IMG/VR virus record: IMGVR_UViG_3300012349_000001 | Source: a virus | DNA length: 60,532 nucleotides | Reading direction: 5' to 3' (one strand) | Shown: piece by piece, positions 1-60,532 of the stretch | Position numbering within the stretch: position 1 is the stretch's first letter | Layout: each line of letters begins with the position of its first letter | Notes under the pieces: generated by a model | The model's database searches: none | Told to the model about the DNA's origin: nothing | The model's input: the letters and a program-made list of their open reading frames with translations, nothing else | Made by a program: the position numbers and the translations under genes

Positions 1-123
1 AAATTTGACTTCGGAGGCCAATCGGTCAATATTCCCGGCAACGTGCAGAGTTGGATTGAAGCGGCGATGGCATTGACGGGTACACCTGGGAATTGGGCAG
101 GTCCCCTAGGCACCATCGCTATG
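1..123. repeat. terminal overlap, copy 1 (identical to 60410-60532)
   Basis: Bases 1-123 recur exactly at 60410-60532, giving a 60409-bp circular or terminally redundant unit. Confidence 0.95.
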
Positions 124-645
124 CATGAGAGCGGCGGTAACCCGAATGCTATCAACAGGACTGATAGCAATGCTCTTGCTGGTCATCCATCACAAGGCAT
201 TATGCAGATGATACCATCCACTTTTGCAGCCCACGCATTAAGCGGTCATGGAAACATCTTAAACCCGATAGACAATATTTCCAGCGCTGTGGGTTATATC
301 TTAGAACGCTATGGAGATGTATTTCATGTTCCGGGAGTTGAAGCAGTAGCAGCGGGAAAAAGCTATATAGGCTATTTCAATGGTGGTTCCATAAATGAGC
401 CTATTCTTGGAAAAGGGTTAAGAACAGGGGCAAATTATTCATTTGGAGAGAGGGGTCCTGAAACTGTAGTCCCGGGGTATTTACCATCAGGTATTAACTT
501 AGTTCAGCAGAATAGTCATGCAATGCCCCCAATCCATATCCATGTGCATCCCAACGACCTCAACATAGATAGCCGTAGGATGGCTAGGGCGTTGGCCCCA
601 GCCCTTACAGACGAGATTAGGTATCGGGTAGGTGCGACGATATGA
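43..645 (+). CDS. SLT-type lysozyme module belonging to the tape measure protein; frame is open from 60398 across the junction
   Basis: Motifs HESGGNPNAIN and GIMQMIPSTF, plus a GERGPETVVP tail motif. No SD before GTG 43. Lies in the -1 frame relative to the TMP ORF. Confidence 0.8.
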   Translation: MQSWIEAAMALTGTPGNWAGPLGTIAMHESGGNPNAINRTDSNALAGHPSQGIMQMIPSTFAAHALSGHGNILNPIDNISSAVGYILERYGDVFHVPGVEAVAAGKSYIGYFNGGSINEPILGKGLRTGANYSFGERGPETVVPGYLPSGINLVQQNSHAMPPIHIHVHPNDLNIDSRRMARALAPALTDEIRYRVGATI

Positions 646-3223: not shown

Positions 3224-4279
3224 ATGACAGCAAGTAACAATTATTACGGTTTTGTCGGCTTTCTTAGCCCGGCATATGCCTTTACACTTTACGATCAAAA
3301 TGGGTCACCATTGAATCTGACAGGTGTTGACGCTGCAACCATGGCATTTGAGTTGTTTGATATCAACGCACGCACAACAATACGCGGAAGCGGGACAATC
3401 ACCATTGTCAATGCTTCTCAAGGACTTGTCAGTTATCAATGGACATTTCAAGACTATGAGGCAATTTCAATTGCAAATTATAGAGCATATGCGACTGCAA
3501 AATTGCCAGGAGAAGCCGGGCCGCGTGCCTTTTTAGTTGGCACTGTTCTATTTGCTACTTTCCCAGGAGGTGCACCAGTGGCCGTACAAGATGTCAATCT
3601 CGACCAAGTAAATGGTCAAAATGTCCCCACTACCGTAAATGGTATCTCAGTTCCTAACGGGACGGTTCCAGTTGTAGTGGTAGTTCCATCAAGAGTAAAT
3701 GCGCAGTCAGGTGATTTTGCTGCTGGGGCCATAGCAGATCTCGCAACGCTTTTAGCTCTTGCAGGCACTTCAGGAGATGCCAACACCGTCAATAGCTTGA
3801 TGGGCAGGTTGACGAAGCTCAGGGACTTGCTGAGCGCATCACTTGCAGTCAATCTTGATGCGACAAACTCAACACATCTAGGCAATATCGATACTGCTAC
3901 CAGTGACCTCGTAGCCGATCTGGACACGCTCATCACGAACACAGGGAGAATACCAGCCTCTCCTGCTCAGGAAGGAGGCAATCTTGCCACGCTCATCCCT
4001 GGTGTGCAGGGATGGATCGCTGCTACAGGTCCCGGGACAGCAGGCCAGGATAACGCTCTCGCCTTTGCGCAACAAGTGCGTAAAATTGCACTCTACAATG
4101 CGAGTCCAAACAATGTGCCTCTTGAATTTGACCAGACAGCAGCGGCAACCTCTTTTCCCATTCCACCCGGGGCATTCTGGATTATCGATGGCGCTCTCTG
4201 CACTAATGTGCATGTGTTCCCATCGGTCACATTGCCAATTAACACGACCAGTGGTCTCTATGTGAAAGGATGGAAGTGA
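3224..4279 (+). CDS. tail fibre/baseplate-associated protein, 351 aa
   Basis: SD GAAGGGAG before the ATG; lies in the tail array. Function by position. Confidence 0.5.
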   Translation: MTASNNYYGFVGFLSPAYAFTLYDQNGSPLNLTGVDAATMAFELFDINARTTIRGSGTITIVNASQGLVSYQWTFQDYEAISIANYRAYATAKLPGEAGPRAFLVGTVLFATFPGGAPVAVQDVNLDQVNGQNVPTTVNGISVPNGTVPVVVVVPSRVNAQSGDFAAGAIADLATLLALAGTSGDANTVNSLMGRLTKLRDLLSASLAVNLDATNSTHLGNIDTATSDLVADLDTLITNTGRIPASPAQEGGNLATLIPGVQGWIAATGPGTAGQDNALAFAQQVRKIALYNASPNNVPLEFDQTAAATSFPIPPGAFWIIDGALCTNVHVFPSVTLPINTTSGLYVKGWK

Positions 4280-5790
4280 TGAGTCAACTTAATCCATCCC
4301 CAAAGCTACTGAATGGCAATGTGGGGATCAACACACCCTCTCCGGGCGAGGCTTTAGAGGTTGGGGCTACTACCTCAACACCAGGGCGCTTGAAGCTTAA
4401 CTCCTATCTTGAGACTGATTCAGCGGGCTCAGCCGAGGTATTGCGTATCTTTTTCAATACTCCAGCGAATTTAAATGGGAACGCTGCAAAGGCCGCGATA
4501 GCATGGTTCGATGCCTCGGTATCCACCACACAGTCAAAGGTCTGGGCGCAAGCACACGATTATCTGCACTTCTATAATCCTGTAACATTCGCTCCAAGTG
4601 CAGTCAACACGGGTACGGGCGTCATCACACTCCCTGCACAGAATGACGCTTATGTTGACAAATATCAGGTACAATTTAGCTCAAGTGGTACGCTTCCGGG
4701 TGGCCTATCGCCTGCCACTAACTATTACCTCAAACTCCTGACTTCAACGACATTTCAAATTTACAACGATTATGGACTGACGAGCCAAGTCACTTTGACG
4801 ACGCAAGGCACAGGCACGCATACTATCACGCCTAATAACGATTTTTGCAGCACTGATGGCGTGATATTCAACAGACATCGCCACTTCTCGATAGAAGTCT
4901 CTAAAGCTGATGGGCAGACAAAAACGAGTCGTTTTAGCATACCATTCGACTATGACACAACTGAGATTTCTACGTTTAGTGCCAATTTCAACGTTAATGC
5001 AGGTCTTAGCCGGATCGTGGGCGCACAGTCCAGTGACAAGCAACTGCAATTCGGGAATGCGCCGACTCCGAATCCGCGAGAGCCTGATGGGACAAATATC
5101 CGCTGGATTGTAAAGCAGGACAATGTTAGTGAAGCTGGCTCCAACGCTGGCTCAAACTTGCGGATCATTCCATGCAACGATTCCGGCGTGGCTCAAGCAT
5201 CCGCCTTGTATATCCAGCGATCCAGTGGCTTCGTTGGACTTGGTGGGAATAGCAGTCCGGGTGTACTACTGGATATTGGTGTTTTCTCGGCTGGTGGTGT
5301 GACAACACAGGCTCGAATAAATCGCGGCAATAACGTATCTCAGCAGGCACAACTACTATTCTCGACTGGCGGAGCAAACCAATGGTCTACTGGGATACGC
5401 AATGATAGTACCGAAAACTATCAGATCAGGGATAGCGTCAACTTCCGTAACCATCTTGTGTGTTATTTGACGCAAGGCATCACACAATTAGCATTAGGAT
5501 TTGCCAAGGCACTTACCACCAAATCAGGCAATTATACGGCGACCAACCAAGACCATAACATTCTGGTGGACGCTACGAGCACCGCTATCACTATCACTCT
5601 TCCCACAGCAGCCACATTAGCTGGTCAAGAGTTTCTGATAAAGGACTGGAAGGGCCAAGCTGCAACGCGCAATATCACCATTGCCACCACATCAGCGCAG
5701 ACGATTGATGGTGCTTCAACCAACGTTATCAATGCAAATTACGGGAAAGTACGTGTGGTGAGTGATGGTGCGAACTGGGCAACCATTTAG
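4270..5790 (+). CDS. tail fibre / receptor-binding candidate, 506 aa
   Basis: Overlaps the previous stop. Gly/Ser/Thr/Asn-rich with a beta-rich C-terminal region, as is usual for fibres. Confidence 0.5.
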   Translation: MEVMSQLNPSPKLLNGNVGINTPSPGEALEVGATTSTPGRLKLNSYLETDSAGSAEVLRIFFNTPANLNGNAAKAAIAWFDASVSTTQSKVWAQAHDYLHFYNPVTFAPSAVNTGTGVITLPAQNDAYVDKYQVQFSSSGTLPGGLSPATNYYLKLLTSTTFQIYNDYGLTSQVTLTTQGTGTHTITPNNDFCSTDGVIFNRHRHFSIEVSKADGQTKTSRFSIPFDYDTTEISTFSANFNVNAGLSRIVGAQSSDKQLQFGNAPTPNPREPDGTNIRWIVKQDNVSEAGSNAGSNLRIIPCNDSGVAQASALYIQRSSGFVGLGGNSSPGVLLDIGVFSAGGVTTQARINRGNNVSQQAQLLFSTGGANQWSTGIRNDSTENYQIRDSVNFRNHLVCYLTQGITQLALGFAKALTTKSGNYTATNQDHNILVDATSTAITITLPTAATLAGQEFLIKDWKGQAATRNITIATTSAQTIDGASTNVINANYGKVRVVSDGANWATI

Positions 5791-5996: not shown

Positions 5997-6803
5997 ATGT
6001 CAGATTATAGCAAGGCACTATGGATACCGAACAACAACTATTTCCCTAATACAGGCAAGAAGAGCTTCTTGATACTTCACTCTACTGCCGGGGGCTCGTC
6101 TGCTCAGGAGATAGCCAACTACTTCAAAGGTACTGAGGGCTCAAACAATCCCGTCTCAAGTCATTATGTGATTGGGAAGGATGGTACAGTCATTCAAACT
6201 GTACGGGAAGCTGACGGCGCATGGGGGAACGGTGTCGTAACTAACTCAAACTGGACTGGAAACCCAAATCTGTATACTATCAGCATAGAGCATGTGAAGA
6301 GCAGCACAGACAATTCAGAGCCTCTTACACCTGCTCAGCAAGCGGCATCTTTCGCACTTATCAAAGACATCTGCCAACGGAACGGGATAGGGATGCATGA
6401 TGCTGATAATACAACAGGCATCACTGGTCACTTTAGTATTGACCCGGTAAATAGGGCAAGATGTCCAGGTAACTTTGATTTTAATGCTTTATGGGCATAT
6501 CTATCAGGAGGAACACCAGTGGCAAACACACAACCAACACCTTCTCAGCTCAAATCAGCTCAAGACTCGTGGGACAGCGTGCTCAAGAGTACACCGGCTG
6601 GGCCAGCACCAAAGGGGACTGGCATTTACCAGGCGTGGGTAGCTGCTCTTGTGGTGTCTGGCAAGTTCTACGGTCCTCCACTAACCCGCGAGTATGACTC
6701 TGTAGATTGGAATGGCAACAAAATCACGGTCCAGGAATTTGCACATGCTAGATGTGAGTGGAACGGATCTGCCAATTGGTACGATGCACACGGGAAGATT
6801 TGA
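5997..6803 (+). CDS. endolysin, N-acetylmuramoyl-L-alanine amidase (Amidase_2/PGRP-like) with a C-terminal extra domain
   Basis: Motifs FLILHSTAGG, SSHYVIGKDGTV, DGAWGNG and YTISIEHV. Confidence 0.8.
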   Translation: MSDYSKALWIPNNNYFPNTGKKSFLILHSTAGGSSAQEIANYFKGTEGSNNPVSSHYVIGKDGTVIQTVREADGAWGNGVVTNSNWTGNPNLYTISIEHVKSSTDNSEPLTPAQQAASFALIKDICQRNGIGMHDADNTTGITGHFSIDPVNRARCPGNFDFNALWAYLSGGTPVANTQPTPSQLKSAQDSWDSVLKSTPAGPAPKGTGIYQAWVAALVVSGKFYGPPLTREYDSVDWNGNKITVQEFAHARCEWNGSANWYDAHGKI

Positions 6804-6811
6804 GGAATGAT

Positions 6812-7171
6812 ATGAACCAAACGATCAATACGATCATCTTCATCTTTGGGGTATTCATCGCTGTCTTTGCAGCATTGTACATCATCTATATCATCAAGCA
6901 GAAGCTTCCTGAGCATATACGCGTGGCTCTAGAGCAGTTCGCTCGGCAATCTGTCTTTCAAGTTGAGCAGACGAGTGGGACTCTTTCCGGGCCAGCAAAG
7001 AAGCAACTAGCTGTTACGGCTGTGATGAAGCTCTTTGAAGCGTTTAGCTTGCCTGCTCCACCTCTGGTAGCCATAGACATAGCTATAGAGGCTGCTGTGT
7101 ACCTGCTCTCAAAGGTGACCGTGGTCGAGAGCAACGAAAAGCCTCAGATTGAAGCACCTAAGCAGGGATAG
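6812..7171 (+). CDS. holin-like membrane protein, 119 aa
   Basis: N-terminal TM segment TIIFIFGVFIAVFAALYIIYII. Immediately follows the endolysin. Confidence 0.6.
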   Translation: MNQTINTIIFIFGVFIAVFAALYIIYIIKQKLPEHIRVALEQFARQSVFQVEQTSGTLSGPAKKQLAVTAVMKLFEAFSLPAPPLVAIDIAIEAAVYLLSKVTVVESNEKPQIEAPKQG

Positions 7172-18752: not shown

Positions 18753-19244
18753 TTACCGTTTCCTCCTACGAGTTACTTTCTTCCTAATTCCTAGCTTCTT
18801 TTCCCTCTCAGCAAGTGCAATCCTTCGCTCTCTCGCCTCTAGATTGGCCCGCTTCCTTGCACTTGCCTGCACACGCTTGACGGTCTTGTGAGCCTTCCTG
18901 ACACCTTTCACAGTGCCTGCTACAGCTCGCCCGGTCGCTTTCGCACCAGCCCATAGTACAGCACCAGTCTTGCGAGCGAACCGACCGAAGCTATCACGTG
19001 GCTGCTCTTCACCCGGCATACGATAGGCTGGTAGAGCTTTCTTTGGCCTGGCCTCTACCCGCGTCTGCTTCATCGTGGCCTTAGAGCGTGCTATGGTAGC
19101 CTTGTGCTGCATAGTGTTTGGCTTGCAAGCTTTGGCAGTGGGCCTCACGTTGCGTGTACGGGCCGCTCTCACTGCCTGGGCCTCGGCCTCTTTCCACTCC
19201 TGAGCTGTCATCTTTTTCAGTGGGAGATCTTCCATGCGTTCCAT
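18753..19244 (-). CDS. highly basic Lys/Arg/Ala-rich protein, 163 aa
   Basis: Abuts both neighbours without gaps. Composition suggests nucleic-acid binding. Confidence 0.55.
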   Translation of the reverse strand: MERMEDLPLKKMTAQEWKEAEAQAVRAARTRNVRPTAKACKPNTMQHKATIARSKATMKQTRVEARPKKALPAYRMPGEEQPRDSFGRFARKTGAVLWAGAKATGRAVAGTVKGVRKAHKTVKRVQASARKRANLEARERRIALAEREKKLGIRKKVTRRRKR

Positions 19245-20824
19245 CAGGCGTTCCCCCTCCTGCGCTGGTCGTACTCATCACAGACCGCTTTCACCATCCA
19301 ATATTCATCACCATTCAGATCAAGCATTCCCTGGATGTCAGTCCTCTTTGTGCCATCCCTGTATAAGCCAAGAATGGCTTCTTTCGCCCTTTCGGGTACC
19401 TCTTTGCCCACGGTCTTTCGCGGATACTCCGAAAGTTTCGAGATGTTCTCAACTGGCTCTACAAGGCTTTCGAGACTATTTCGCCATGGTTCGCTGCTTG
19501 CTTGCTTGTTTTCATCGAAATTTCGAGACTGCTGATATTGCCTAAGCTCACTTAATCCAGGTGTATTAGCCCCATGTGGTGAATGCCTTACACGCATTTG
19601 TACAAGCATCTTGCTCACTTTGGATGAGAAAAAGTAGCCTTGCCCATCATGAAGAGAAAGCGTCTCATCATTGGTTATGCCCATAGCAGTGTACTTTTTC
19701 AGATCGTTTAATTCGGTCTGCCGATGGAGCAATTTGACATCACACTGAAGAGCCCGCTTGTCAACCTCTGCTATTTTCTGGCAGATGACCGTCAAGCCCA
19801 GTCCTCGCTTGCGACCCTTCCTCACCATGTCATTGAAGAAAGCATCTTGCAGGCGGTTGAAGATCTCGGTCCCGTTCAACTGACTCTCATTCACATTTTG
19901 TGGGAGCCAGGTCGTTGCCTCTTCTAGTAGGAATTCACACGGGACACGTATCTCGTTCGCTCGCTCTTCCTGCCATTGCTTCATACCAGCGATGATATTG
20001 ACCATGATCTGTGCTGCCTCTGGCATCTCGTATGAGTGCAGGTTAAGCACAGCCTGAATATTCTGCTCTAGGACATGCCTACCGAATTGCTCAGCATTCC
20101 CAACATTGACGACTCGGCTATCTACTCTCATCGCATGAGGCAGATAGCGACGGTCACAGAGAGACTCGTATTCGTTCTCAGTATCTGCCAGCACCATCGG
20201 TACATCTAGACGGCCTAACTCCTCACAAGTCGTTGCTGTACTGTTGCTCTTTCCAGAACCTGAAACCCCCACAATCAGTTTCCTGCCAGACAGGAATTCG
20301 TCAGCATGTGGCTGGTAGTCCTCTGAGATGTTGAGGTATTCATTGACTGGCTTTGCTTGCTCGATTCTTTTCGTGTCATCTTCAGTGTCGTCATCATAGC
20401 CGTACTCATCTAGAAGCGGCATGAGTCGCTGTATGGCAGTTGAAGCAGACCCAACAACCTGAGCAGTCTTCTGTTGCTGGCCTATCAATTGAGCTTGCAT
20501 TTGAAGCAATTCAGTAAGCCCCAGACCCTCAGCAGATCCGATCTGTATCACCTGAGTGCCACGCACCACAATAGCACGTGCCACTTGCTCGCCTTTGCCA
20601 TCCTTGATCACCAGAGTGTGACGACCTTTCCAGATTTTGACGCCTATAGCCGCGCATCCGAGTCCAACCCCTGTGAAAAAGAGGATCTTGAGCCCTGTAA
20701 CAAGGTCCCTCAAGAACGAGAGGAAGCCAGCATGGATAGCCGGATCTAGCAGGAGCAAGAATGATCCAAGAATGATGACACCAATGAAACACAGCCCTGC
20801 GAGGACAGTATCTTTCGTATTCAT
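19244..20824 (-). CDS. membrane-anchored HerA/FtsK-superfamily (DUF87-like) P-loop ATPase, 526 aa
   Basis: N-terminal TM segments; Walker A GVSGSGKS; DTENEY; Walker B LLEEATTWLP; KGRKRGLGLTVICQK. ATGA overlap with the upstream gene; SD GGAGG. Confidence 0.75.
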   Translation of the reverse strand: MNTKDTVLAGLCFIGVIILGSFLLLLDPAIHAGFLSFLRDLVTGLKILFFTGVGLGCAAIGVKIWKGRHTLVIKDGKGEQVARAIVVRGTQVIQIGSAEGLGLTELLQMQAQLIGQQQKTAQVVGSASTAIQRLMPLLDEYGYDDDTEDDTKRIEQAKPVNEYLNISEDYQPHADEFLSGRKLIVGVSGSGKSNSTATTCEELGRLDVPMVLADTENEYESLCDRRYLPHAMRVDSRVVNVGNAEQFGRHVLEQNIQAVLNLHSYEMPEAAQIMVNIIAGMKQWQEERANEIRVPCEFLLEEATTWLPQNVNESQLNGTEIFNRLQDAFFNDMVRKGRKRGLGLTVICQKIAEVDKRALQCDVKLLHRQTELNDLKKYTAMGITNDETLSLHDGQGYFFSSKVSKMLVQMRVRHSPHGANTPGLSELRQYQQSRNFDENKQASSEPWRNSLESLVEPVENISKLSEYPRKTVGKEVPERAKEAILGLYRDGTKRTDIQGMLDLNGDEYWMVKAVCDEYDQRRRGNA

Positions 20825-21174
20825 GCCCTTACCTCCTGCACTCCAAAAAAAGACATGATCGATGGTAAAAGGACACAGGTGAGCTTTATGCAGATAAGCA
20901 GCATAGCCCACGTGACGAACGTTGCAGCTACAGCTACATAATTGCCATTTAACAGGGAAAATGTCGCTTGACATACGCCGCTAAGCGCATGGATGAAGAG
21001 GACAAGCACGCCACATGCCCAGATGAGCACGTAGAATGCAAGAGCAAGTGCGGTCACGATAGCCGCAATGCTCGCGATGTATGCCAAGACCTGCAGCGTT
21101 GACCGTGCAGTCCTGATGAGGTTGTCACTTGGTATAAAAATTGTCATTAGCTTGGCTCCTTGCATGGCTACCAA
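20821..21174 (-). CDS. polytopic small membrane protein, 117 aa
   Basis: 3-4 hydrophobic segments. Translationally coupled to the ATPase gene. Confidence 0.6.
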   Translation of the reverse strand: MVAMQGAKLMTIFIPSDNLIRTARSTLQVLAYIASIAAIVTALALAFYVLIWACGVLVLFIHALSGVCQATFSLLNGNYVAVAATFVTWAMLLICIKLTCVLLPSIMSFFGVQEVRA

Positions 21175-42078: not shown

Positions 42079-42552
42079 ATGGCAGAAGAAGAAATTCTTA
42101 CAGTAAAGCAATCTCAGCTTATTGAGTTGATTATAGCTGGCAAAACACAGGAAGAAGCGGCGACTACTCTTGAAGTTGGAGCAAGAACAGTAGCTCGATG
42201 GATGACACTGCCTCACGTAAAAAAAGCCTATGAAGAATTAAAAAGTGATGTATCGCTGCAAGTTCGCGAAAAGATCAAAGGGCTTTCCGATAAAGCTCTC
42301 GATGCATTAAAAGACAGTTTAGAGTGTAAGTCTAGTTTAGTAAAATTTCAGGCATCAACCTATGTTTTAGAGCGTGTAGCGCCCGCTGAGAAGCAGACAC
42401 AGCAATCACAAGAAGACGAAAGAATAGATGCAAACTTGGTGCCATATATGACGAATGAAGAGCGAATAACCGTTGCCGATATCATTCAGCGTGCAAAAGA
42501 GCGAAAAGTAGAAGCAGAGGAAAAGATCACTCCCATTAGGAAACACGCATGA
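42079..42552 (+). CDS. terminase small subunit candidate with an N-terminal HTH, 157 aa
   Basis: LTVKQSQLIELIIAGKTQEEAATTLEVGARTVARW. Overlaps the terL start (ATGA). Confidence 0.6.
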   Translation: MAEEEILTVKQSQLIELIIAGKTQEEAATTLEVGARTVARWMTLPHVKKAYEELKSDVSLQVREKIKGLSDKALDALKDSLECKSSLVKFQASTYVLERVAPAEKQTQQSQEDERIDANLVPYMTNEERITVADIIQRAKERKVEAEEKITPIRKHA

Positions 42553-44033
42553 TCATTGCTGACTCTTTATTAACCATTATAGAAGCTGAAAAGGCTAGAA
42601 GTGACTTTGCAACATTTGTAAAGGAAGCTTGGCATGAGCTAGAGCCAGACACACCGCTGCTGTGGAACTGGCATCTTGACGCGCTTTGTGTCCATCTGCA
42701 AGCTCTCTACACCCGCGAAATCACCCGTCTCATCATTGGTATAGCCCCGGGCCACGCGAAATCTACCCTCGTCTCTGTGATGTTTCCTGTCTGGTGCTGG
42801 ATAAATGACCCGTATTCCAGGTGGCTTTGTGCCTCTCATAGCTTGGATTTAGCTATTCGTGATAATCGTTATCGTCGTCGCTTGATAGAGTCTGAATGGT
42901 TTCAAGAGCGATATGGGCATATCTTCAAATTTGCGCATGACCAGAGGCTCAAGTCTTACTATGAGAATGACAAAAAAGGATATCATATGGCTCTAGCTGT
43001 ACGTGGTAGTGGAACAGGCAAGAGAGGAACACACCTGCTCATAGACGATCCGCACAATGCTATGGAGGGTGAAGCTGACCAAAGGGCAGTGATAGAGTGG
43101 TTTGGCAAGACTTGGATGAGTCGCATTAATGACCAGCGTACAGGCCTCATGGCACTAGTCGGCCAGCGGCTGCGTGCTAACGACCTGATTGGTCACATTC
43201 TCGAATTAGGTGGATGGGAACATCTCTGTTTGCCAGAAGAATATGAGCCTAGTCGCAAGAGTATCACGAAGATTGGCTGGCAAGATCCGCGTGCAGAGGA
43301 AGGTGAGTTACTTTGGCCTGACAGGTATCCGAAAGAGGTGCTCGATAAGCTAAAGCTAGGGCTAGGTAGTCTCGACTATGCAGCGCAATTTCAGCAGCGT
43401 CCGGTGCCTGCTGAAGGCGGTCAATTCCGCAAAGAATGGTTTAGATATTTCACTCAAAATGCGGAATACTACACTCTTGAGACTGATACAGGGATCAAGA
43501 ACATATTTACTGGCAACTGCTACAACCTCATCACGGTTGACGTGGCTATCTCGCAAAAGCAAACAGCAGACTACACCGTGATTTGTGTGTGGGCTATCAC
43601 GCCACAAAAGGAATTGCTCTTGATCGATCGCATTAGGGCGCGTCTCAATAATCCTGAGCAGCAAAAACAAATCAAGCTCCTCTACCAGCGGTATAACCCC
43701 GATTCTATCGATATTGAGAACGTGGCCTACCAGCTTGCGCTTATTCAGCAGTTGCTCGAGCAGGGTCTACCAGTTCGTGAATATCGACCTGTGAAGGACA
43801 AGGTTTCGCGTGCCTCTACCGCTGCTGTATTCTACGAGGCAAGCCGTGTCTATCATCCCAAAAATGCTAGCTGGCTACCAGAATGGGAAGACGAGTTGCT
43901 TTTATTCCCTTTAGCAACACATGACGACCAGGTAGACAATGCAAGTATGGCTTGTGATGTGATGGCAAAACATGGAATTGAGCTACTTGACGACGAAACA
44001 GCTAATGCAATACGCGGATATGTGGGGTTTTAG
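42549..44033 (+). CDS. terL: terminase large subunit, 494 aa
   Basis: Walker A-like GIAPGHAKST, Walker B HLLIDDP, coupling motif VGQRLRANDL, nuclease motif THDDQVDNAS. Confidence 0.9.
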   Translation: MIIADSLLTIIEAEKARSDFATFVKEAWHELEPDTPLLWNWHLDALCVHLQALYTREITRLIIGIAPGHAKSTLVSVMFPVWCWINDPYSRWLCASHSLDLAIRDNRYRRRLIESEWFQERYGHIFKFAHDQRLKSYYENDKKGYHMALAVRGSGTGKRGTHLLIDDPHNAMEGEADQRAVIEWFGKTWMSRINDQRTGLMALVGQRLRANDLIGHILELGGWEHLCLPEEYEPSRKSITKIGWQDPRAEEGELLWPDRYPKEVLDKLKLGLGSLDYAAQFQQRPVPAEGGQFRKEWFRYFTQNAEYYTLETDTGIKNIFTGNCYNLITVDVAISQKQTADYTVICVWAITPQKELLLIDRIRARLNNPEQQKQIKLLYQRYNPDSIDIENVAYQLALIQQLLEQGLPVREYRPVKDKVSRASTAAVFYEASRVYHPKNASWLPEWEDELLLFPLATHDDQVDNASMACDVMAKHGIELLDDETANAIRGYVGF

Positions 44034-50570: not shown

Positions 50571-51656
50571 ATGGCTTACGGAACATTAAGTATCTTTGAT
50601 ACCATTGGTGGCCGTAGAGCAGCCGCTAATGACTACATCGGGTTGTACGACCCCGCCACGCTCTATCAGCAGCTCTCTGTCTTCTTAGAAGCTCACAACC
50701 ACATCATGGACGCTATGAGTAGCGACTTGATGGAGCCAACGACTGAGCGCTTCCTCACCTACGGCTCAAATGACGAAACTCAGATGATCGATGGTGACGA
50801 AATGTCCAGGCCGGAAGTCCAGAAGGTTACTGTAACCCCTACCATGATGGGTTTTCCGCTCCGTATCCGTCAGGTGGCCTATGGCGTCACCCAGTTGTTC
50901 ATGGAGACGAAAACCATAGGGGACTTGGAGCAAGTGGTTACGGCCTGTACCGATGCTGATCTGCGCGATAGGTTGGCAAGTATCAGAGCTGCGCTATTCA
51001 ACCCGACCAACAGCTTGACCTATAAAGACCGCTTTGTAGACAATATCACGCTTCCCTTGCGTCAACTGCTCAATGCAGACGGGACGTACATACCCCCGGA
51101 CTACTACGGCAATACGTTCAACTTCAACACACACACGCACTACCTAGCTACAGCCTCGTTTAGCAATACTGACTTGCACTCGCTAGTTGACACGGTTGTA
51201 GAACACTTCAACACCGGATCTCTGCGCGTGTACATCAATCATGCGAATGAGGCTACAGTTAGAGGTTTTACTGACTTCCTGCCGTATTGGGACGCAAGAG
51301 TTACCCCATCCATCAATCTTACCAATGCGCTTGGTACGCCTTTAGATGTGCTCAATATCTACAACAGGCCTATCGGTATCTTTGGTGCAGCAGAGGTGTG
51401 GACGAAACCCTGGATAGCAGCTAACTACGCTTTTGCATTTAATACAGACGCGCCGAAACCCCTTCGCATGCGCACGCGCCCGACTGCTGGTGTCAATCGT
51501 GGTCAACTCCGTATCGCTGCACAGCTTTCTATGTACCCGCTTATGGCAACATACATGGAGAGGGAATACGGGATATCTGTCTTTAATCGCGAGAACGGAG
51601 CATGCATGGATTTGACGCACAGTACGTATCAAGCGCCACCTGCATGGAGTTTATAG
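50571..51656 (+). CDS. major capsid protein, 361 aa
   Basis: Strong SD AAAGGAG. Size and position after the scaffold and decoration genes. Confidence 0.7.
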   Translation: MAYGTLSIFDTIGGRRAAANDYIGLYDPATLYQQLSVFLEAHNHIMDAMSSDLMEPTTERFLTYGSNDETQMIDGDEMSRPEVQKVTVTPTMMGFPLRIRQVAYGVTQLFMETKTIGDLEQVVTACTDADLRDRLASIRAALFNPTNSLTYKDRFVDNITLPLRQLLNADGTYIPPDYYGNTFNFNTHTHYLATASFSNTDLHSLVDTVVEHFNTGSLRVYINHANEATVRGFTDFLPYWDARVTPSINLTNALGTPLDVLNIYNRPIGIFGAAEVWTKPWIAANYAFAFNTDAPKPLRMRTRPTAGVNRGQLRIAAQLSMYPLMATYMEREYGISVFNRENGACMDLTHSTYQAPPAWSL

Positions 51657-54564: not shown

Positions 54565-55842
54565 ATGCCATGGAGTCCTGAGGTATCAACGATAGGCCAG
54601 ACCGTACAGGTAGGGATTGAATCAACACCAGGAACAGCAGTACCAGCTAATAAAAGAATTGATAATCTCGCGTACGTCTTCGGACCTAAAGGCGACTTTA
54701 AAGAAACATCAGGCACAGGACGTAAGTATCCATCAGTGCAACAACTTAATGCAGAATGGATTGAAGGTACGCTATCGGGGTCGATGGACTACAACAGTAT
54801 GGTGTATCCGTTGGCAGGCGCATTAGGCGTTGTAACACCAGTTGCGCACGGAGCTTCAGCAGTTGCCAAGGACTGGATACTTGATGCTTCACTCTCAGGC
54901 GCAAAGCAGCCTCAGACGCTCTCCTTTGAGCAAGGTGATCCTGCGACGAGGGCTCATAAGTTTGCCTACGGCTTGCATACAGCGTTTGGCTACAAGTTCA
55001 ACCGCAAGACCGATGCCTCGGTCTCTGGTACTGTGCTAGCCCAGTCGGTGACTGATGGCATCACCATGACAGGCTCCCCAACTGCTGTTGTCTTGTCTCC
55101 TATCACAGGCCAGCACTTCAACCTCTACTTGGACAGCACTTCAGCAGGACTCGGTGTTACTCAGGTGCTTAAAGCTCTCTCTGCTGAATTTGCGATGGCT
55201 TCGATTTATGGCCCCGCTTGGTACATCAACCGTGCCAATCCCTCCTACTCAGCTCATGTCGACCTGAATCCAACGGCTACTTTCAAGTTCATGGTAGCAG
55301 CAGACGCGGCTGGCATGGCGAGCTTGGGAGATATGCGCACTGGCGTCACGAAGTTCTGCCGCGTGGAAGCGCTTGGACCTGTGATCGACAATAATCAGAC
55401 CGTAACACTTGGTGCACAATCGTCTGGTACCTTCACGCTGACATATAAAGGTCAAACCACAGCAACTATCGCGTACAACGCGGCTGCTTCTGCTGTGCAA
55501 ACCGCATTCCTTGCGCTGTCTACGGTCGGGGCTGGCAATGCAACGGTATCCGGCAGCGTAGGCGGTCCCTACGCAATTGCACTCAGTGGCGCTCTTGCTC
55601 AGGACACGACGGCTATCACAGGCACATTTACCGCTTTAACCACTCCCGGGAACGCCTCCATCACACAAACGCAGGTCTATGCTCGTTTCTGGCATGACAT
55701 GGCTATCAAGATTGGGCAGCCAGGCCAGTGGGCGGACAGCAACGGCGTGTTTATGATCGAGTGGACATGCTCCATTTTCGAGGATGGTGGCTGGGGCCAC
55801 GCCCATCTGGTGACTCTCACAAATTTACTAACGGCTCTTTAG
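54565..55842 (+). CDS. major tail protein, 425 aa
   Basis: SD AGGAGGGA. Located before the chaperone pair and the tape measure. Confidence 0.65.
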   Translation: MPWSPEVSTIGQTVQVGIESTPGTAVPANKRIDNLAYVFGPKGDFKETSGTGRKYPSVQQLNAEWIEGTLSGSMDYNSMVYPLAGALGVVTPVAHGASAVAKDWILDASLSGAKQPQTLSFEQGDPATRAHKFAYGLHTAFGYKFNRKTDASVSGTVLAQSVTDGITMTGSPTAVVLSPITGQHFNLYLDSTSAGLGVTQVLKALSAEFAMASIYGPAWYINRANPSYSAHVDLNPTATFKFMVAADAAGMASLGDMRTGVTKFCRVEALGPVIDNNQTVTLGAQSSGTFTLTYKGQTTATIAYNAAASAVQTAFLALSTVGAGNATVSGSVGGPYAIALSGALAQDTTAITGTFTALTTPGNASITQTQVYARFWHDMAIKIGQPGQWADSNGVFMIEWTCSIFEDGGWGHAHLVTLTNLLTAL

Positions 55843-55849
55843 GAGTTCT

Positions 55850-56212
55850 ATGCCTTTATCACACTCTCAGGTACAAAAAGACGAAGCAACGGTTTCTATA
55901 CCAATGCTCGGTGAAATGCTCAATATCGTCTACTATCCGTCAAGGATGACAGATGATGTATTCATCAAGTTTGCAGAGATTGAAACCGTAAAGACGATCA
56001 ATGATGCAAAAGGCGCTTTGACCAGCATGAATGAAATGTTGGCTGGCATGATCAAATCATGGGACTTTTATGAGGATGACGAGCAAACGGTTATGTGGCC
56101 TCTAGAGCCTGCCATGCTTGCAAAAGTGGACATGACCTTCAAGCTGAAGTGTCTCTTCGCTATCATGAGGCACGTCCGCCCGGAAGCTCAGGTGCCTCAG
56201 ATCCCGACATGA
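55850..56212 (+). CDS. tail assembly chaperone (gpG-like), 120 aa
   Basis: Canonical position, with an overlapping -1 frame ORF downstream. Confidence 0.7.
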   Translation: MPLSHSQVQKDEATVSIPMLGEMLNIVYYPSRMTDDVFIKFAEIETVKTINDAKGALTSMNEMLAGMIKSWDFYEDDEQTVMWPLEPAMLAKVDMTFKLKCLFAIMRHVRPEAQVPQIPT

Positions 56213-56409
56213 TCGATCTGGGGCGCTGGCTAGCAACTGATGGGCTCGTTGGCGCAATGACCGACGACTACCCGCTTTGGGTAGCATCTGATCGGTGTCA
56301 CTGCCCACCTTGGGAGTTGGCAAAGCAGTCTGTGTGGTGGCGTGATCGGGCACTAAAGATATTGGATAGAGAAAACTACGCAAGAGAAGAGAAGAGAAAA
56401 CATCAATGA
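56080..56409 (+). CDS. -1 frame extension (gpT-like part of a G/GT fusion)
   Basis: The -1 frame is open from 56080 and ends 15 nt before the tape measure start. No independent SD. Confidence 0.6.
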   Translation, partial: RANGYVASRACHACKSGHDLQAEVSLRYHEARPPGSSGASDPDMIDLGRWLATDGLVGAMTDDYPLWVASDRCHCPPWELAKQSVWWRDRALKILDRENYAREEKRKHQ

Positions 56410-56423
56410 GAGGAGGGTAGTTT

Positions 56424-59400
56424 GTGGGAATTGTCGCATCTCAGCTAACAGGCGTGATCTCAATTACCGGGGCTGCTCAGGGTAAAGCTGACATCCTCAG
56501 CGTAGGCTCTGCTTCACAGACGGCACAGGCTGACCTTACTCAACTCCAAAATGCCGCTAAAGATGTCAGCTCTATCCTCTCCTCTCGAATGTCTGCTGAG
56601 CTGAAGAATGCTCAATCGGGCTTGCAGGATCTAGCCGTGCGTGCCGATGCTGCCGGTCTCGATGTCAGCAAATTCGCCTCCCTCCAAATGCAAGCTGCCG
56701 AGTCCTCTGCTCGTCTAGGAGTAGCCCAGGCCCAGGCCGCTGCAGCTATGGAAAAGGCCAACCTCGTTACAGCGGACGCCTCCTCAAGTACCGAGCAAGT
56801 CGCACTCGCACAATCGAAAGCGGCTCTTGCTGCGGAACTTGTCCAGAAAGCAGAGGCAAATGCTGGCAACGCTATGGCAATGGTTGCAGGCGAGGCCACG
56901 CGACTATCAGATGCCCTTGAAACATCTAATGTAAAATCCAACGTCTTCTCGACTGCCATGGCTACGGGCGAGAAAAGTACTGGTGGGTTTCTCAGTGGCA
57001 TAACGGGAGCTGCAAGCGGGCTACTTGATTTTGGCATGAAGGCAAGCATGACGCTCATGGGTGTGGAGATGCTTGGTGGCATGTTCATGAAGGTTGCAAC
57101 CGCAGCGGGCGACATGATCGGCAATTTTCAGCAACAGATGACAAAGCTCACCACCACTGCAGGAGAATCGACAGACAAAATCAAGATGGTCGGTGACGGC
57201 ATCCTTGCCATGGCAGGCCCTACTGCTACCTCCGTAAAGAGCCTGGGCGACGCGATGTATTTTGTCGAGGGCGGCGGGGCTCATGGGAAGAAAGCTCTTG
57301 AAGATCTCAGGATAGCTGCAATGGGGGCAAAAGCTGAGAATGCCGATTTGACTGGCGTAACAAAAGCCTTGATGTTTACCCTTGCCAACTATGCGGATAC
57401 GGGCCTCACAGCAGCGGGCGCAATGAATACCTTGATCACTGCTGTTGGTGAAAGCAATATGACACTACAGGACATGTCAGGCGCGATATCCAATGTTATG
57501 CCAACCGCCCATGCATTTGGCATTTCACTGACTGATGTCACCGCAGGCCTTGCAACGATGGTCATGAAAGGGGACGATGCATCAGCTGCGGCTACCCACC
57601 TTGCTATGATGATCAAGACGCTCGAAGCACCTGCCTCATCAGGGGCCAAGGCACTCGCTTCCATCGGCCTCACGACGCAACAGGTTACCGACGAAATGCG
57701 CAAGTCCCTCCCAGGCGCTCTTGAATTGATTGTTGACCATCTCAAAAACAAGTTTCCAGAGGGCTCTACTGCTTACAATGAAGCACTCAAGAACATATCA
57801 GGTGGCAGCCGGTCAATGCAGGCAATACTAGAGACAACAGGCTCATCTCTTGATACCTTCAAGCAGAACGTTGACAAGATCACAGGGGCTGTCAAGGCTG
57901 GTGGTAACTCAATAGCGGGTTGGAATGATGTAACACAAAACTTCAATTTCATGGTAGACCAAGCAAAAGCATCTGTTGGGGCATTTGGAATTGCGATAGG
58001 AACAGCACTAGCTCCAATGCTTGGCAGTATGATCGGGTCGATAACAAGCGGGGTCATACCTGCTCTCAGCAAATTTGGACAATGGTTTATCGCAGAGGGC
58101 ATACCAGCTATACAGCAATTTGGAGCGTCAATAGCTCCTCTGCGATTTGTTGTAGAGGATCTAGGGAGATGGTTTGTTCTTGCCCTTAAAGATATAGGCC
58201 CGCTTTTAGCGCAAATAGGGCAGGTTGCTGGTACTGTTTTCGGGAATATCGCGAAATATATGGGGGAAAGTGACCAGTTTGGGGCTTTGCTTACTGATTT
58301 TGAGACTCTAGGTAATCAAATCCTTCGACTCGATCTTTCCAATTTACGAGCCCTGGGGCCAATCGTCCAAGGTGCTCTTGGCATTCTCGGGACTATCCTC
58401 ACAAGTATCGTTATTCCTGCTCTTGACTTCTTTGTCTTTAATCTTGGCAGAATGTATGAATTCTTGAATAATGGTTCAGTTGCAGCACAATTGGTCAAAG
58501 GAGCGCTTTTAGGCATAGGAGGGGCAATAGCCGCTATCCAGATCGGAGCATTTGTCGCAACCATACCCGCTCTTGTGGCTGGTTTCTTTGCCTGGGCAGG
58601 CGCTGCCGGGCTTGCTGCCGTTGCTACTATAGCCGCCACGTGGCCTATCCTCGCCATAGGAGCGGCTGTAGGTGTAGTTGTGGCTGGCATTGTCCTGGCC
58701 GTGCAGCATTGGGGCGACATCATGGGCTGGATCACAGGTAAGACAGAGCAGACGCGGATCAAGGTAGAAGAAGAGCATACCAAGATGGCAATCGCGATGG
58801 ATACCAAGACTGCCGATGGTGCTCAAAAAGCTATCAATAACATGGAGATGGAACGCACAGGCATTTTGCAAAAGATGAAGGAAACAAATGATCCTATAGA
58901 AAAAGCTGAACTTGATCACCAACTAAAAATGCTCAACGCAAATGAGCAGGCACAAATGCTGAAACTGCAAAAGGCAGATGAGGACAAGAAAAAGCAACTA
59001 GCCAAGCAAAAAGAACTGCATGACCGGATGGTGGAAGCGCAAAAGCCATGGTTTGCACGGATGTGGGACGGGATATCTGGCTTCTTTGGGAATATAGGCC
59101 ATTGGTTCACAGATCGCTTCAAAGATGCTAAAAATGGCATAGCAGGTGTATTCGGCTCTATAGGCCACTGGTTCGGGGATAGATGGCATGACATTGAGAA
59201 TATCTGGGGTGGAGTAGGCCAATGGTTCCAGGACAGATTTAAAGATGCTAAAAATGGCATAACAGGAGCTATAGGCGATATAGGCCAATGGTTCCAGGAT
59301 CGCTGGCATGATATCCAAAATATCTGGGGCGGGATTGGTAAGTGGTTTCAAGATCGCTGGAACGAGTTGCCATCTCCACTAAAAGCGACTCTTGCCTATA

Positions 59401-60485
59401 TAGGAGATGTATTTCAGACATTATGGAATATTGTCGTTGCTCTGTGGGGAAAAGCAGGCGCTAAGTTCCAAGAATGGTGGAGTGATGTTGAAAGGCCAAC
59501 AGCGGTTTTTGTGGGGATGATAGGTGGTAAGATACATGAAGCTTGGAATGCAGTTGTGGGAGCATTTCAGTTCCTTGGAAGGTGGTTTGGTGACCGATGG
59601 GAAGACACGAAGAAGATACTCGGTGGTGTAGGCGCTTGGTTCCATGATAAGTTCGCTGAAGCTTGGGGCCATGTTACAGGCTTCTTTGGTTTTCTAGGCA
59701 AGTGGTTTGGGGACAGGTGGCATGATGCACAAAATATACTCGGAGGCGTCGGCAACTGGTTTCACGATCTGTTTCAGGGAGCTTGGAATAAGGTCACGCA
59801 AATATGGGCTCCTATCGGCAAATGGTTCTCTGACACGTGGGATGACGTTAAAAAGAAGACAAGCGATAAATGGAATGAAATAAAGACAGATGCATCAAAT
59901 ATATTCAAGGGACTGATTAACGCAATTATAGATCAATTGAATAATGGCATATCGGGTATTGAGAACTTTATCAACTTCTTCGGTCAGGGCTTGGACAGCA
60001 TCGCTACCAGCTTGGGAACAAAAGGCACCATACCAGTAGCTCATCTTGGCAGGATACCGCACTATGCTGAAGGAACAGAGGCTCATCCGGGTGGCCTTAT
60101 GGTCACAGGTGAAGAAGGGCCTGAGCTTACGTGGGCACCCCCAGGGACAAAAGTGGTACGCCACAAAGAAACCATGCAGATCCTTGCAGCTATGATGGGA
60201 GGAAAGATCCCGGGCTATGCTGGCGGAATCGGTGACCTCGGCAGTCAAATTCTGGGATGGATATCTGGCGGCGCGAAAAGTATTCTCGACAACGTGATCA
60301 GCTCGCTTCACATCAAAGCCCCTGACCTGGGGCCGATGAGCAACATTTCAAGCGGCATCTTCGACACTATCAAGAATTGGGCTCTATCGTGGGTTGAAAA
60401 CCTGCTTCCAAATTTGACTTCGGAGGCCAATCGGTCAATATTCCCGGCAACGTGCAGAGTTGGATTGAAGCGGCGATGGCATTGA
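56424..60485 (+). CDS. tail tape measure protein, 1353 aa in this frame
   Basis: Long Ala/Gly-rich helical region, hydrophobic central segment, W/F-rich repeats and a GEEGPELTWAPPGTKV motif. GTG start after GAGGAGGG. Confidence 0.9.
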   Translation: MGIVASQLTGVISITGAAQGKADILSVGSASQTAQADLTQLQNAAKDVSSILSSRMSAELKNAQSGLQDLAVRADAAGLDVSKFASLQMQAAESSARLGVAQAQAAAAMEKANLVTADASSSTEQVALAQSKAALAAELVQKAEANAGNAMAMVAGEATRLSDALETSNVKSNVFSTAMATGEKSTGGFLSGITGAASGLLDFGMKASMTLMGVEMLGGMFMKVATAAGDMIGNFQQQMTKLTTTAGESTDKIKMVGDGILAMAGPTATSVKSLGDAMYFVEGGGAHGKKALEDLRIAAMGAKAENADLTGVTKALMFTLANYADTGLTAAGAMNTLITAVGESNMTLQDMSGAISNVMPTAHAFGISLTDVTAGLATMVMKGDDASAAATHLAMMIKTLEAPASSGAKALASIGLTTQQVTDEMRKSLPGALELIVDHLKNKFPEGSTAYNEALKNISGGSRSMQAILETTGSSLDTFKQNVDKITGAVKAGGNSIAGWNDVTQNFNFMVDQAKASVGAFGIAIGTALAPMLGSMIGSITSGVIPALSKFGQWFIAEGIPAIQQFGASIAPLRFVVEDLGRWFVLALKDIGPLLAQIGQVAGTVFGNIAKYMGESDQFGALLTDFETLGNQILRLDLSNLRALGPIVQGALGILGTILTSIVIPALDFFVFNLGRMYEFLNNGSVAAQLVKGALLGIGGAIAAIQIGAFVATIPALVAGFFAWAGAAGLAAVATIAATWPILAIGAAVGVVVAGIVLAVQHWGDIMGWITGKTEQTRIKVEEEHTKMAIAMDTKTADGAQKAINNMEMERTGILQKMKETNDPIEKAELDHQLKMLNANEQAQMLKLQKADEDKKKQLAKQKELHDRMVEAQKPWFARMWDGISGFFGNIGHWFTDRFKDAKNGIAGVFGSIGHWFGDRWHDIENIWGGVGQWFQDRFKDAKNGITGAIGDIGQWFQDRWHDIQNIWGGIGKWFQDRWNELPSPLKATLAYIGDVFQTLWNIVVALWGKAGAKFQEWWSDVERPTAVFVGMIGGKIHEAWNAVVGAFQFLGRWFGDRWEDTKKILGGVGAWFHDKFAEAWGHVTGFFGFLGKWFGDRWHDAQNILGGVGNWFHDLFQGAWNKVTQIWAPIGKWFSDTWDDVKKKTSDKWNEIKTDASNIFKGLINAIIDQLNNGISGIENFINFFGQGLDSIATSLGTKGTIPVAHLGRIPHYAEGTEAHPGGLMVTGEEGPELTWAPPGTKVVRHKETMQILAAMMGGKIPGYAGGIGDLGSQILGWISGGAKSILDNVISSLHIKAPDLGPMSNISSGIFDTIKNWALSWVENLLPNLTSEANRSIFPATCRVGLKRRWH
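59041..59870 (+). repeat. tandem W/F-rich peptide repeats inside the tape measure
   Basis: Reiterated units such as IGHWF.DR(F/W).D(A/I).N(G/I) and GG(V/I)G.WF.D. Confidence 0.8.
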
Positions 60486-60532
60486 CGGGTACACCTGGGA
60501 ATTGGGCAGGTCCCCTAGGCACCATCGCTATG
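60410..60532. repeat. terminal overlap, copy 2 (identical to 1-123)
   Basis: Exact repeat of bases 1-123. Confidence 0.95.

Follow-up and report, generated by a model that had tools for sequence, protein, structure and literature searches.

Tape measure proteins (TMPs) that embed a muralytic domain are known from mycobacteriophage TM4, whose TMP carries such a motif (PMC1796659), and from enterococcal phages, in which lytic transglycosylase lysins are located in the TMPs (PMC10194240). The TMP gene that we examined resembles these siphovirus genes in that it combines a PhageMin_Tail domain and a long ruler with an SLT domain carrying a HESGG catalytic-type motif, lies between tail chaperone-like and distal tail genes, and forms a single open reading frame (ORF) in an otherwise identical phage and in its relatives. 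Nothing substantive sets it apart once a single A is restored, but the copy written in the window (the whole 60,532-nt stretch of DNA that was analysed) is broken by a 1-nt deletion. The break also invites comparison with sites of -1 frameshifting such as dnaX, IS911/IS3 orfAB and the tail chaperone G/GT pair. Like them, it has a zero-frame X_XXY_YYZ heptamer in a short two-frame overlap; unlike them, it has no stimulatory SD or downstream structure, presents UUG as a poor A-site codon and is not a conserved arrangement. A third comparison is with the indels found at the closure points of circular de Bruijn assemblies, which have a terminal overlap of length k. The window has an exact 123-nt overlap with a single-base difference on its first base, yet its deletion lies inside the contig, 123 nt from the 3' end.

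A preliminary description of this DNA had offered two explanations for the break, programmed -1 frameshifting and a 1-nt assembly error. Sequence comparisons lead us to regard it as very probably a 1-nt indel, either an assembly artefact or a sample-specific variant, in an ordinary single-ORF TMP of 1543 aa. Loss of one A from a run of four (CCA AAA TTT to CCAAATTT) would leave the gene as a 1353-aa ORF with its remainder in the -1 frame. The coordinates of the features discussed below are collected in Table 1.

Table 1. Positions of the tape measure gene, its junction and neighboring features in the window.
Feature	Position	Strand	Description and basis
TMP ORF as written	56424-60485	+	GTG start, 1353 aa, TGA 60483-60485; ORF list
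TMP body, frame 0	56424-60409	+	Ends two bases into the Pro codon at the conserved ...LLP/KF... junction; colinear with the L006 and L007 TMPs
A3 run, one A missing	60410-60412	+	A4 in the otherwise identical phage, whole gene then in one frame; blastn against L014 and L015
A_AAT_TTG heptamer	60410-60416	+	Read as cca aat ttg in the TMP frame; AAA TTT (Lys-Phe of the conserved LPKF) and one further base
Terminal overlap	60410-60532		Exact copy of 1-123; starts exactly at the indel site
Out-of-frame tail of truncated ORF	60417-60485	+	TSEANRSIFPATCRVGLKRRWH, then stop; counterpart in no relative
C-terminal module of the same TMP gene	1-645	+	Gly-rich linker, SLT, GERGPE motif, conserved ...EIRYRVGATI; Pfam PF01464; fused in one ORF in homologues
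Baseplate-like protein	4270-5790		PHROG match
Amidase_2 endolysin	5997-6803		Annotation of identical ENA contig; lysis cassette downstream of tail genes
Lysis cassette (Amidase_2 endolysin and Phage_holin_6_1 holin)	5997-7171		Annotation of identical ENA contig
Terminase large subunit	42549-44033		PHROG match
Major head protein	50571-51656		PHROG match
Major tail protein	54565-55842		PHROG match

Judged by its gene content, the window is a tailed-phage genome. Self-comparison of the window showed that its last 123 nt repeat the first 123 nt exactly. This repeat of fixed k length has no genome-terminus role, falls within the TMP gene at a distance of about 17.9 kb downstream from the gene for the terminase large subunit, and marks the closing of a circular assembly loop, not a biological repeat. 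The window thus comprises 60,409 unique bp in its present form, or 60,410 bp once the A is put back. On a circle of the latter size, terminal overlaps of 139 nt and 141 nt would be consistent with the lengths of the phage's other assemblies, 60,549 bp and 60,551 bp.

Upstream of the TMP gene, a tail-chaperone-like pair (55850-56409) consists of a 120-aa ORF (55850-56212) and a second one in the -1 frame with its end at 56409. The slot upstream of the TMP usually holds a conserved G/GT -1 frameshift. We found no in-phase X_XXY_YYZ heptamer in the 55850-56212 ORF and no PHROG family match for either ORF of the pair. An ATG at 56209 overlaps the TGA of the first ORF (ATGA), and the ENA contig has the second annotated as a gene of its own, 66 aa long.

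Three features place the gene itself in the TMP class: a PhageMin_Tail domain at aa 260-443 (Pfam PF10145, E = 5.2e-23), its great length, and its place between the tail chaperone-like and distal tail genes in the gene order of L015, a stretch of the ENA contig described below. Between about 59100 and 60000 (TMP aa ~890-1190), the protein has W/F-rich tandem units of about 20 aa (G.IG.WF.DR[WF].D...I...), which are also present in the relative P0007 and are probably part of the ruler region. A motif of the G…G(E/D)xGPE type occurs in two copies around the SLT domain (~60090-60190 and 375-475), HYAEGTEAHPGGLMVTGEEGPELTWAPPGTKV upstream and YFNGGSINEPILGKGLRTGANYSFGERGPETVVPG downstream, both conserved in relatives. 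As the preliminary description had it, the ORF as written runs to its TGA through a junk-like tail, the C-terminus being ...LLPNLTSEANRSIFPATCRVGLKRRWH (also given as ...NWALSWVENLLPNLTSEANRSIFPATCRVGLKRRWH) before the stop. Its reading of the -1 frame was also borne out: this frame is closed by a TGA at 60395-60397, opens at 60398, reads KPASKFDFGGQSVNIPGNVQSWIEAAMALTG..., crosses the overlap and stops at the TGA at 643-645. It encodes an SLT lytic transglycosylase domain (Pfam PF01464, E = 4.3e-12) at about nt 97-318, which contains HESGGNPNAIN and GIMQMIPSTF. Both frames are open over a stretch of 88 nt (27 codons). The phage also has a separate Amidase_2 endolysin and a holin downstream; this endolysin and the SLT domain of the TMP, a virion-associated enzyme, are therefore not the same.

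The base missing from the window is present in other assemblies of the phage. Using the exact product of the downstream gene 692-2200, we reached a contig of the same phage in ENA (ERZ14695916 DNA_vOTU_408, 60,549 bp). Two stretches of this contig, L014 (13,309 nt) and L015 (24,632 nt), aligned to the window by blastn with 0 mismatches and 1 gap, so that the structural module is base-identical over the 24.6 kb that the comparison covers. The single gap corresponds to CTTCCAAAATTTG (a run of four As, A4) in DNA_vOTU_408 versus CTTCCAAATTTG (three As, A3) in the window, and the missing base is an A in CCAAAATTT. In DNA_vOTU_408 the TMP is one 1543-aa gene with PhageMin_Tail and SLT domains, and the junction lies mid-contig, not at an end. 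Insertion of one base into the window TMP yields a 1543-aa protein identical to the L014 product. The SLT domain, which sits in the -1 frame of the window as written, shares one ORF with the ruler in L014, L015 and the relatives.

Records of the two protein forms followed the same division. An exact-sequence cluster table records the intact 1543-aa protein from NCBI, Logan and ENA (2 contigs, the longest of 60,551 bp), and the truncated 1353-aa form only from JGI/IMG, on one 60,532-bp contig of the same length as the window. Three contigs carrying the intact protein, from at least two samples, were read directly. The truncated product, with a V or an M start, had no entry in the gene-position index. 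The junction region found no match among 50,697 GenBank phages (blastn, distant mode), and an exact-pattern scan of IMG/VR found neither junction allele. Scanning metagenome_contigs gave the four relatives already obtained from IMG/VR and no additional copy of the window phage. In the gene-position collection there was no record of the exact 576-aa product of the window gene at 19244-20974 (- strand), and the other contigs may therefore not equal the window beyond the 24.6 kb compared. They may differ outside it, for example in the early/replication region, or use another start codon, and they may represent a sister strain instead of the same population.

More distant relatives also read through the junction in one frame. 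We searched with a 369-aa query that joins both frames and recovered proteins that match up to 100% of the query within a single polypeptide. Every protein that covers the site has the sequence ...KDWAL(S/T)(F/W)(I/V)xxILPKFDFGGGG...VN(V/I)PGNVQSWI.... Each of the eight more distant relatives that span it (50-70% aa identity; metagenome fragments L001-L005 and IMG/VR sequences L006-L008) carries ...LP(K/T)F... in one frame, with open frames of 1705 aa in L006 and 1716 aa in L007. The read-through is visible at the DNA level as TTG CCC AAA TTT GAC TTC in L001 and TTG CCT AAG TTC GAC TTT in L003. L007 has TGG GTT GAA AAC CTG CTT CCT AAA TTT versus TGG GTT GAA AAC CTG CTT CC- AAA TTT in the window, and so shares TGGGTTGAAAACCTGCTTCC-T-AAATTT with it, the extra base aside. 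Homology in the window follows frame 0 through Leu-Leu-Pro and then frame -1 from Lys-Phe, with exactly one base missing between them. Further, the repaired 1543-aa protein aligned to the L006 and L007 TMPs in an HSP over residues 773-1543, junction included. The alignment of homologues that the preliminary description had suggested as a check thus returned single ORFs; the two-frame arrangement is not conserved.

For two relatives, P0007 (480 aa) and its close relative P0003, look-ups returned the protein but no DNA record. In P0007, about 35 residues before the SLT domain (…CIRDIQQGQGLGSWVDRQNFAKVRLRRGGGS) look as though the conserved …FNKVKDWALSFVDSILPKFDFGGGG had been translated in the wrong frame. 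The reading frame seems to return in the Gly run, and P0007 lacks about 120 aa that P0003 has. This sequence suggests that indels around the Gly-rich linker recur in assemblies of this TMP family, or that the linker tolerates them.

The position of the missing base bears on its origin. In a de Bruijn graph, contigs begin at nodes where alleles merge, and the contig of an unbranched loop starts at an arbitrary place. The only difference in the 24,632 nt compared, the A at 60410-60412, falls on the overlap boundary, where position 60410 equals position 1, and the contig opens with the leading A of the shortened run. The 123-mer that begins with AAATTTG is the first k-mer common to the A3 and A4 alleles, the preceding base being C in one and A in the other. 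By our rough estimate, a contig start would fall on the indel site by chance about once in 10^4 on a 60.4-kb circle. Because the start coincides with the merge node of A3 and A4, we infer that reads of the source sample also held the second allele. The MEGAHIT k-list used by JGI for large metagenomes presumably ends at k = 123, which would fit the length of the overlap.

The same reasoning indicates that the shorter allele was read. A de Bruijn contig contains only k-mers that occur in reads, so that no fewer than a few reads of the source sample must have carried A3. Furthermore, as bubble popping usually keeps the better-covered path, A3 could be genuine in that sample and even its dominant allele. 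As the deletion lies 123 nt inside the 3' end, it was not made by trimming or joining the ends; its k-mers must have been in the reads. Given its place at the circular closure node, the loss of the base most likely reflects an artefact of assembly or sequencing, or else a variant allele taken at a graph branch. Thus, the 1-nt assembly error that the preliminary description proposed gains support in its essentials in that one A is missing relative to the identical phage and at the overlap boundary; the loss may stem from an error in assembly or sequencing or from a genuine variant in the source sample.

Two other origins of the break were considered and set aside. A deletion in the run of Cs (CCC AAA to CC AAA) was ruled out by the identical phage, which reads CCA AAA. 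Transcriptional slippage was rejected as well: the runs of A known to cause it are far longer than three or four, and a run of 3-4 As is too short.

Programmed -1 frameshifting at A_AAU_UUG, an evolved device that would yield two TMPs in a fixed proportion, a short one of 1353 aa and one of 1543 aa that carries the SLT domain, seems to us highly improbable. A codon listing upheld the earlier reading that A_AAT_TTG is phased as X_XXY_YYZ in the TMP zero frame, and the heptamer does lie within the 88-nt two-frame stretch; a trans-frame product would also restore the conserved SLT and C-terminal modules. The phasing, however, comes with the deletion. The conserved Lys-Phe is encoded by AAA TTT in the window, L001 and L007, in frame in the latter two, and removal of one base just upstream puts AAA TTT into the -1 frame, so that the X_XXY_YYZ phase is automatic. 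As it arises with the deletion, the phasing is neither an independent coincidence nor evidence of recoding, and on this sequence reading the heptamer is a by-product of the deletion. In-phase heptamers of this kind occur across the window genes at random frequency, at 25 of the 7739 codon positions (0.32%) in 23 long + strand ORFs versus 0.39% at random, with 3 of the 25 inside the TMP gene and about 0.09 expected in the 27-codon two-frame stretch. The motif would also be a poor shifter if E. coli rules apply in the host of this phage: the A-site codon UUG (Leu) would have to re-pair on UUU (Phe), which is not cognate. In a survey of such motifs in E. coli, constructs without a stimulator reached at most about 10 times the background of 0.055%, the best motifs permitted cognate re-pairing in the A site, heterogeneous ZZN codons such as UUG shifted more poorly, and even in combination with the IS3 pseudoknot the U_UUG tetramer reached no more than 1.8-3.6 times background (PMC4066793). 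A stimulator was sought on both sides of the junction. The fold of the downstream 84 nt (60417-60500), which include the segment 60417-60480 that the preliminary description had proposed as a place to look for a stimulatory structure, came out less stable than shuffled sequences (-20.2 kcal/mol versus -23.9 ± 2.9, z = +1.29; 185 of 200 shuffles folded at least as well), as did that of the 153-nt context (60380-60532; z = +1.01). There was no Rfam match at the junction at E <= 1, and no SD-like element (GGAGG/AGGA) in the 30 nt upstream (60380-60409, GGCTCTATCGTGGGTTGAAAACCTGCTTCC). With a single continuous ORF in the otherwise identical contig and in all eight relatives, no stimulator and a weak motif, the frameshifting proposal finds no support.

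The remaining readings accept A3 as real DNA. If the gene were truly split, a truncated TMP would be accompanied by an SLT protein made separately from the GTG at 43-45 (ORF 43-645, 200 aa) or the ATG at 64-66 (60473-60475). Some phages do encode tail-associated lysins as separate proteins. Direct reading, however, showed no SD-like sequence before either start, in agreement with what had been noted for GTG 43. None of the relatives is split in this way, the 200-aa product is nowhere on record in the exact-sequence cluster table, and the family-conserved extreme C-terminus (...EIRYRVGATI, ...EIRNKVQVRI) would be cut off from the ruler. We therefore consider a functional split very unlikely. 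Equally hard to credit is that A3 is real and dominant and that the heptamer created by the deletion slips -1 often enough to supply full-length TMP, a very recent correction of the 'savior' type. Such slippage would work because the junction lies in a tolerant Gly-rich linker, and 'savior'-type translational correction of indels is named as a category in a review of recoding (PMC5009743). A loss-of-function allele, carried by a defective sub-population or a decaying prophage copy with no compensating mechanism, is a possibility of another order, unlikely but deserving of some weight and in agreement with all the observations. In its favor, our reasoning from de Bruijn assemblers indicates that A3 k-mers must be in the reads, and a contig that starts where the alleles merge is a sign that the sample held two of them. 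Against it, a population plentiful enough to yield a closed 60-kb circle would probably not be dominated by a defective allele, and the 24.6 kb compared contain no other lesion. This reading overlaps with the 1-nt indel that we favor, and the likelihoods assigned to the two are not additive; the intact gene is the functional one in both, and they differ on whether the base is missing in real DNA.

The frame break is, as far as sequence comparison can tell, not a biological recoding feature. It carries a caution for similar cases, because a single-base indel before in-frame XXX YYY codons always makes a correctly phased 'canonical' heptamer, so that correct phasing where a frame breaks does not count independently in favor of programmed frameshifting. 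We recommend annotating the TMP as a single ORF of 1543 aa whose C-terminal part carries the SLT domain, and the genome as a 60,410-bp circle. With the A restored, the gene would encode a standard siphovirus TMP, composed of an N-terminal minor-tail domain, a W/F-repeat ruler, a GPE motif, a Gly-rich linker, the SLT domain, a second GERGPE motif and a conserved tail-tip motif at the C-terminus, ...EIRYRVGATI. By analogy with TMPs of this kind, the task of the SLT domain would be local cleavage of peptidoglycan at the tail tip as the DNA enters the cell.
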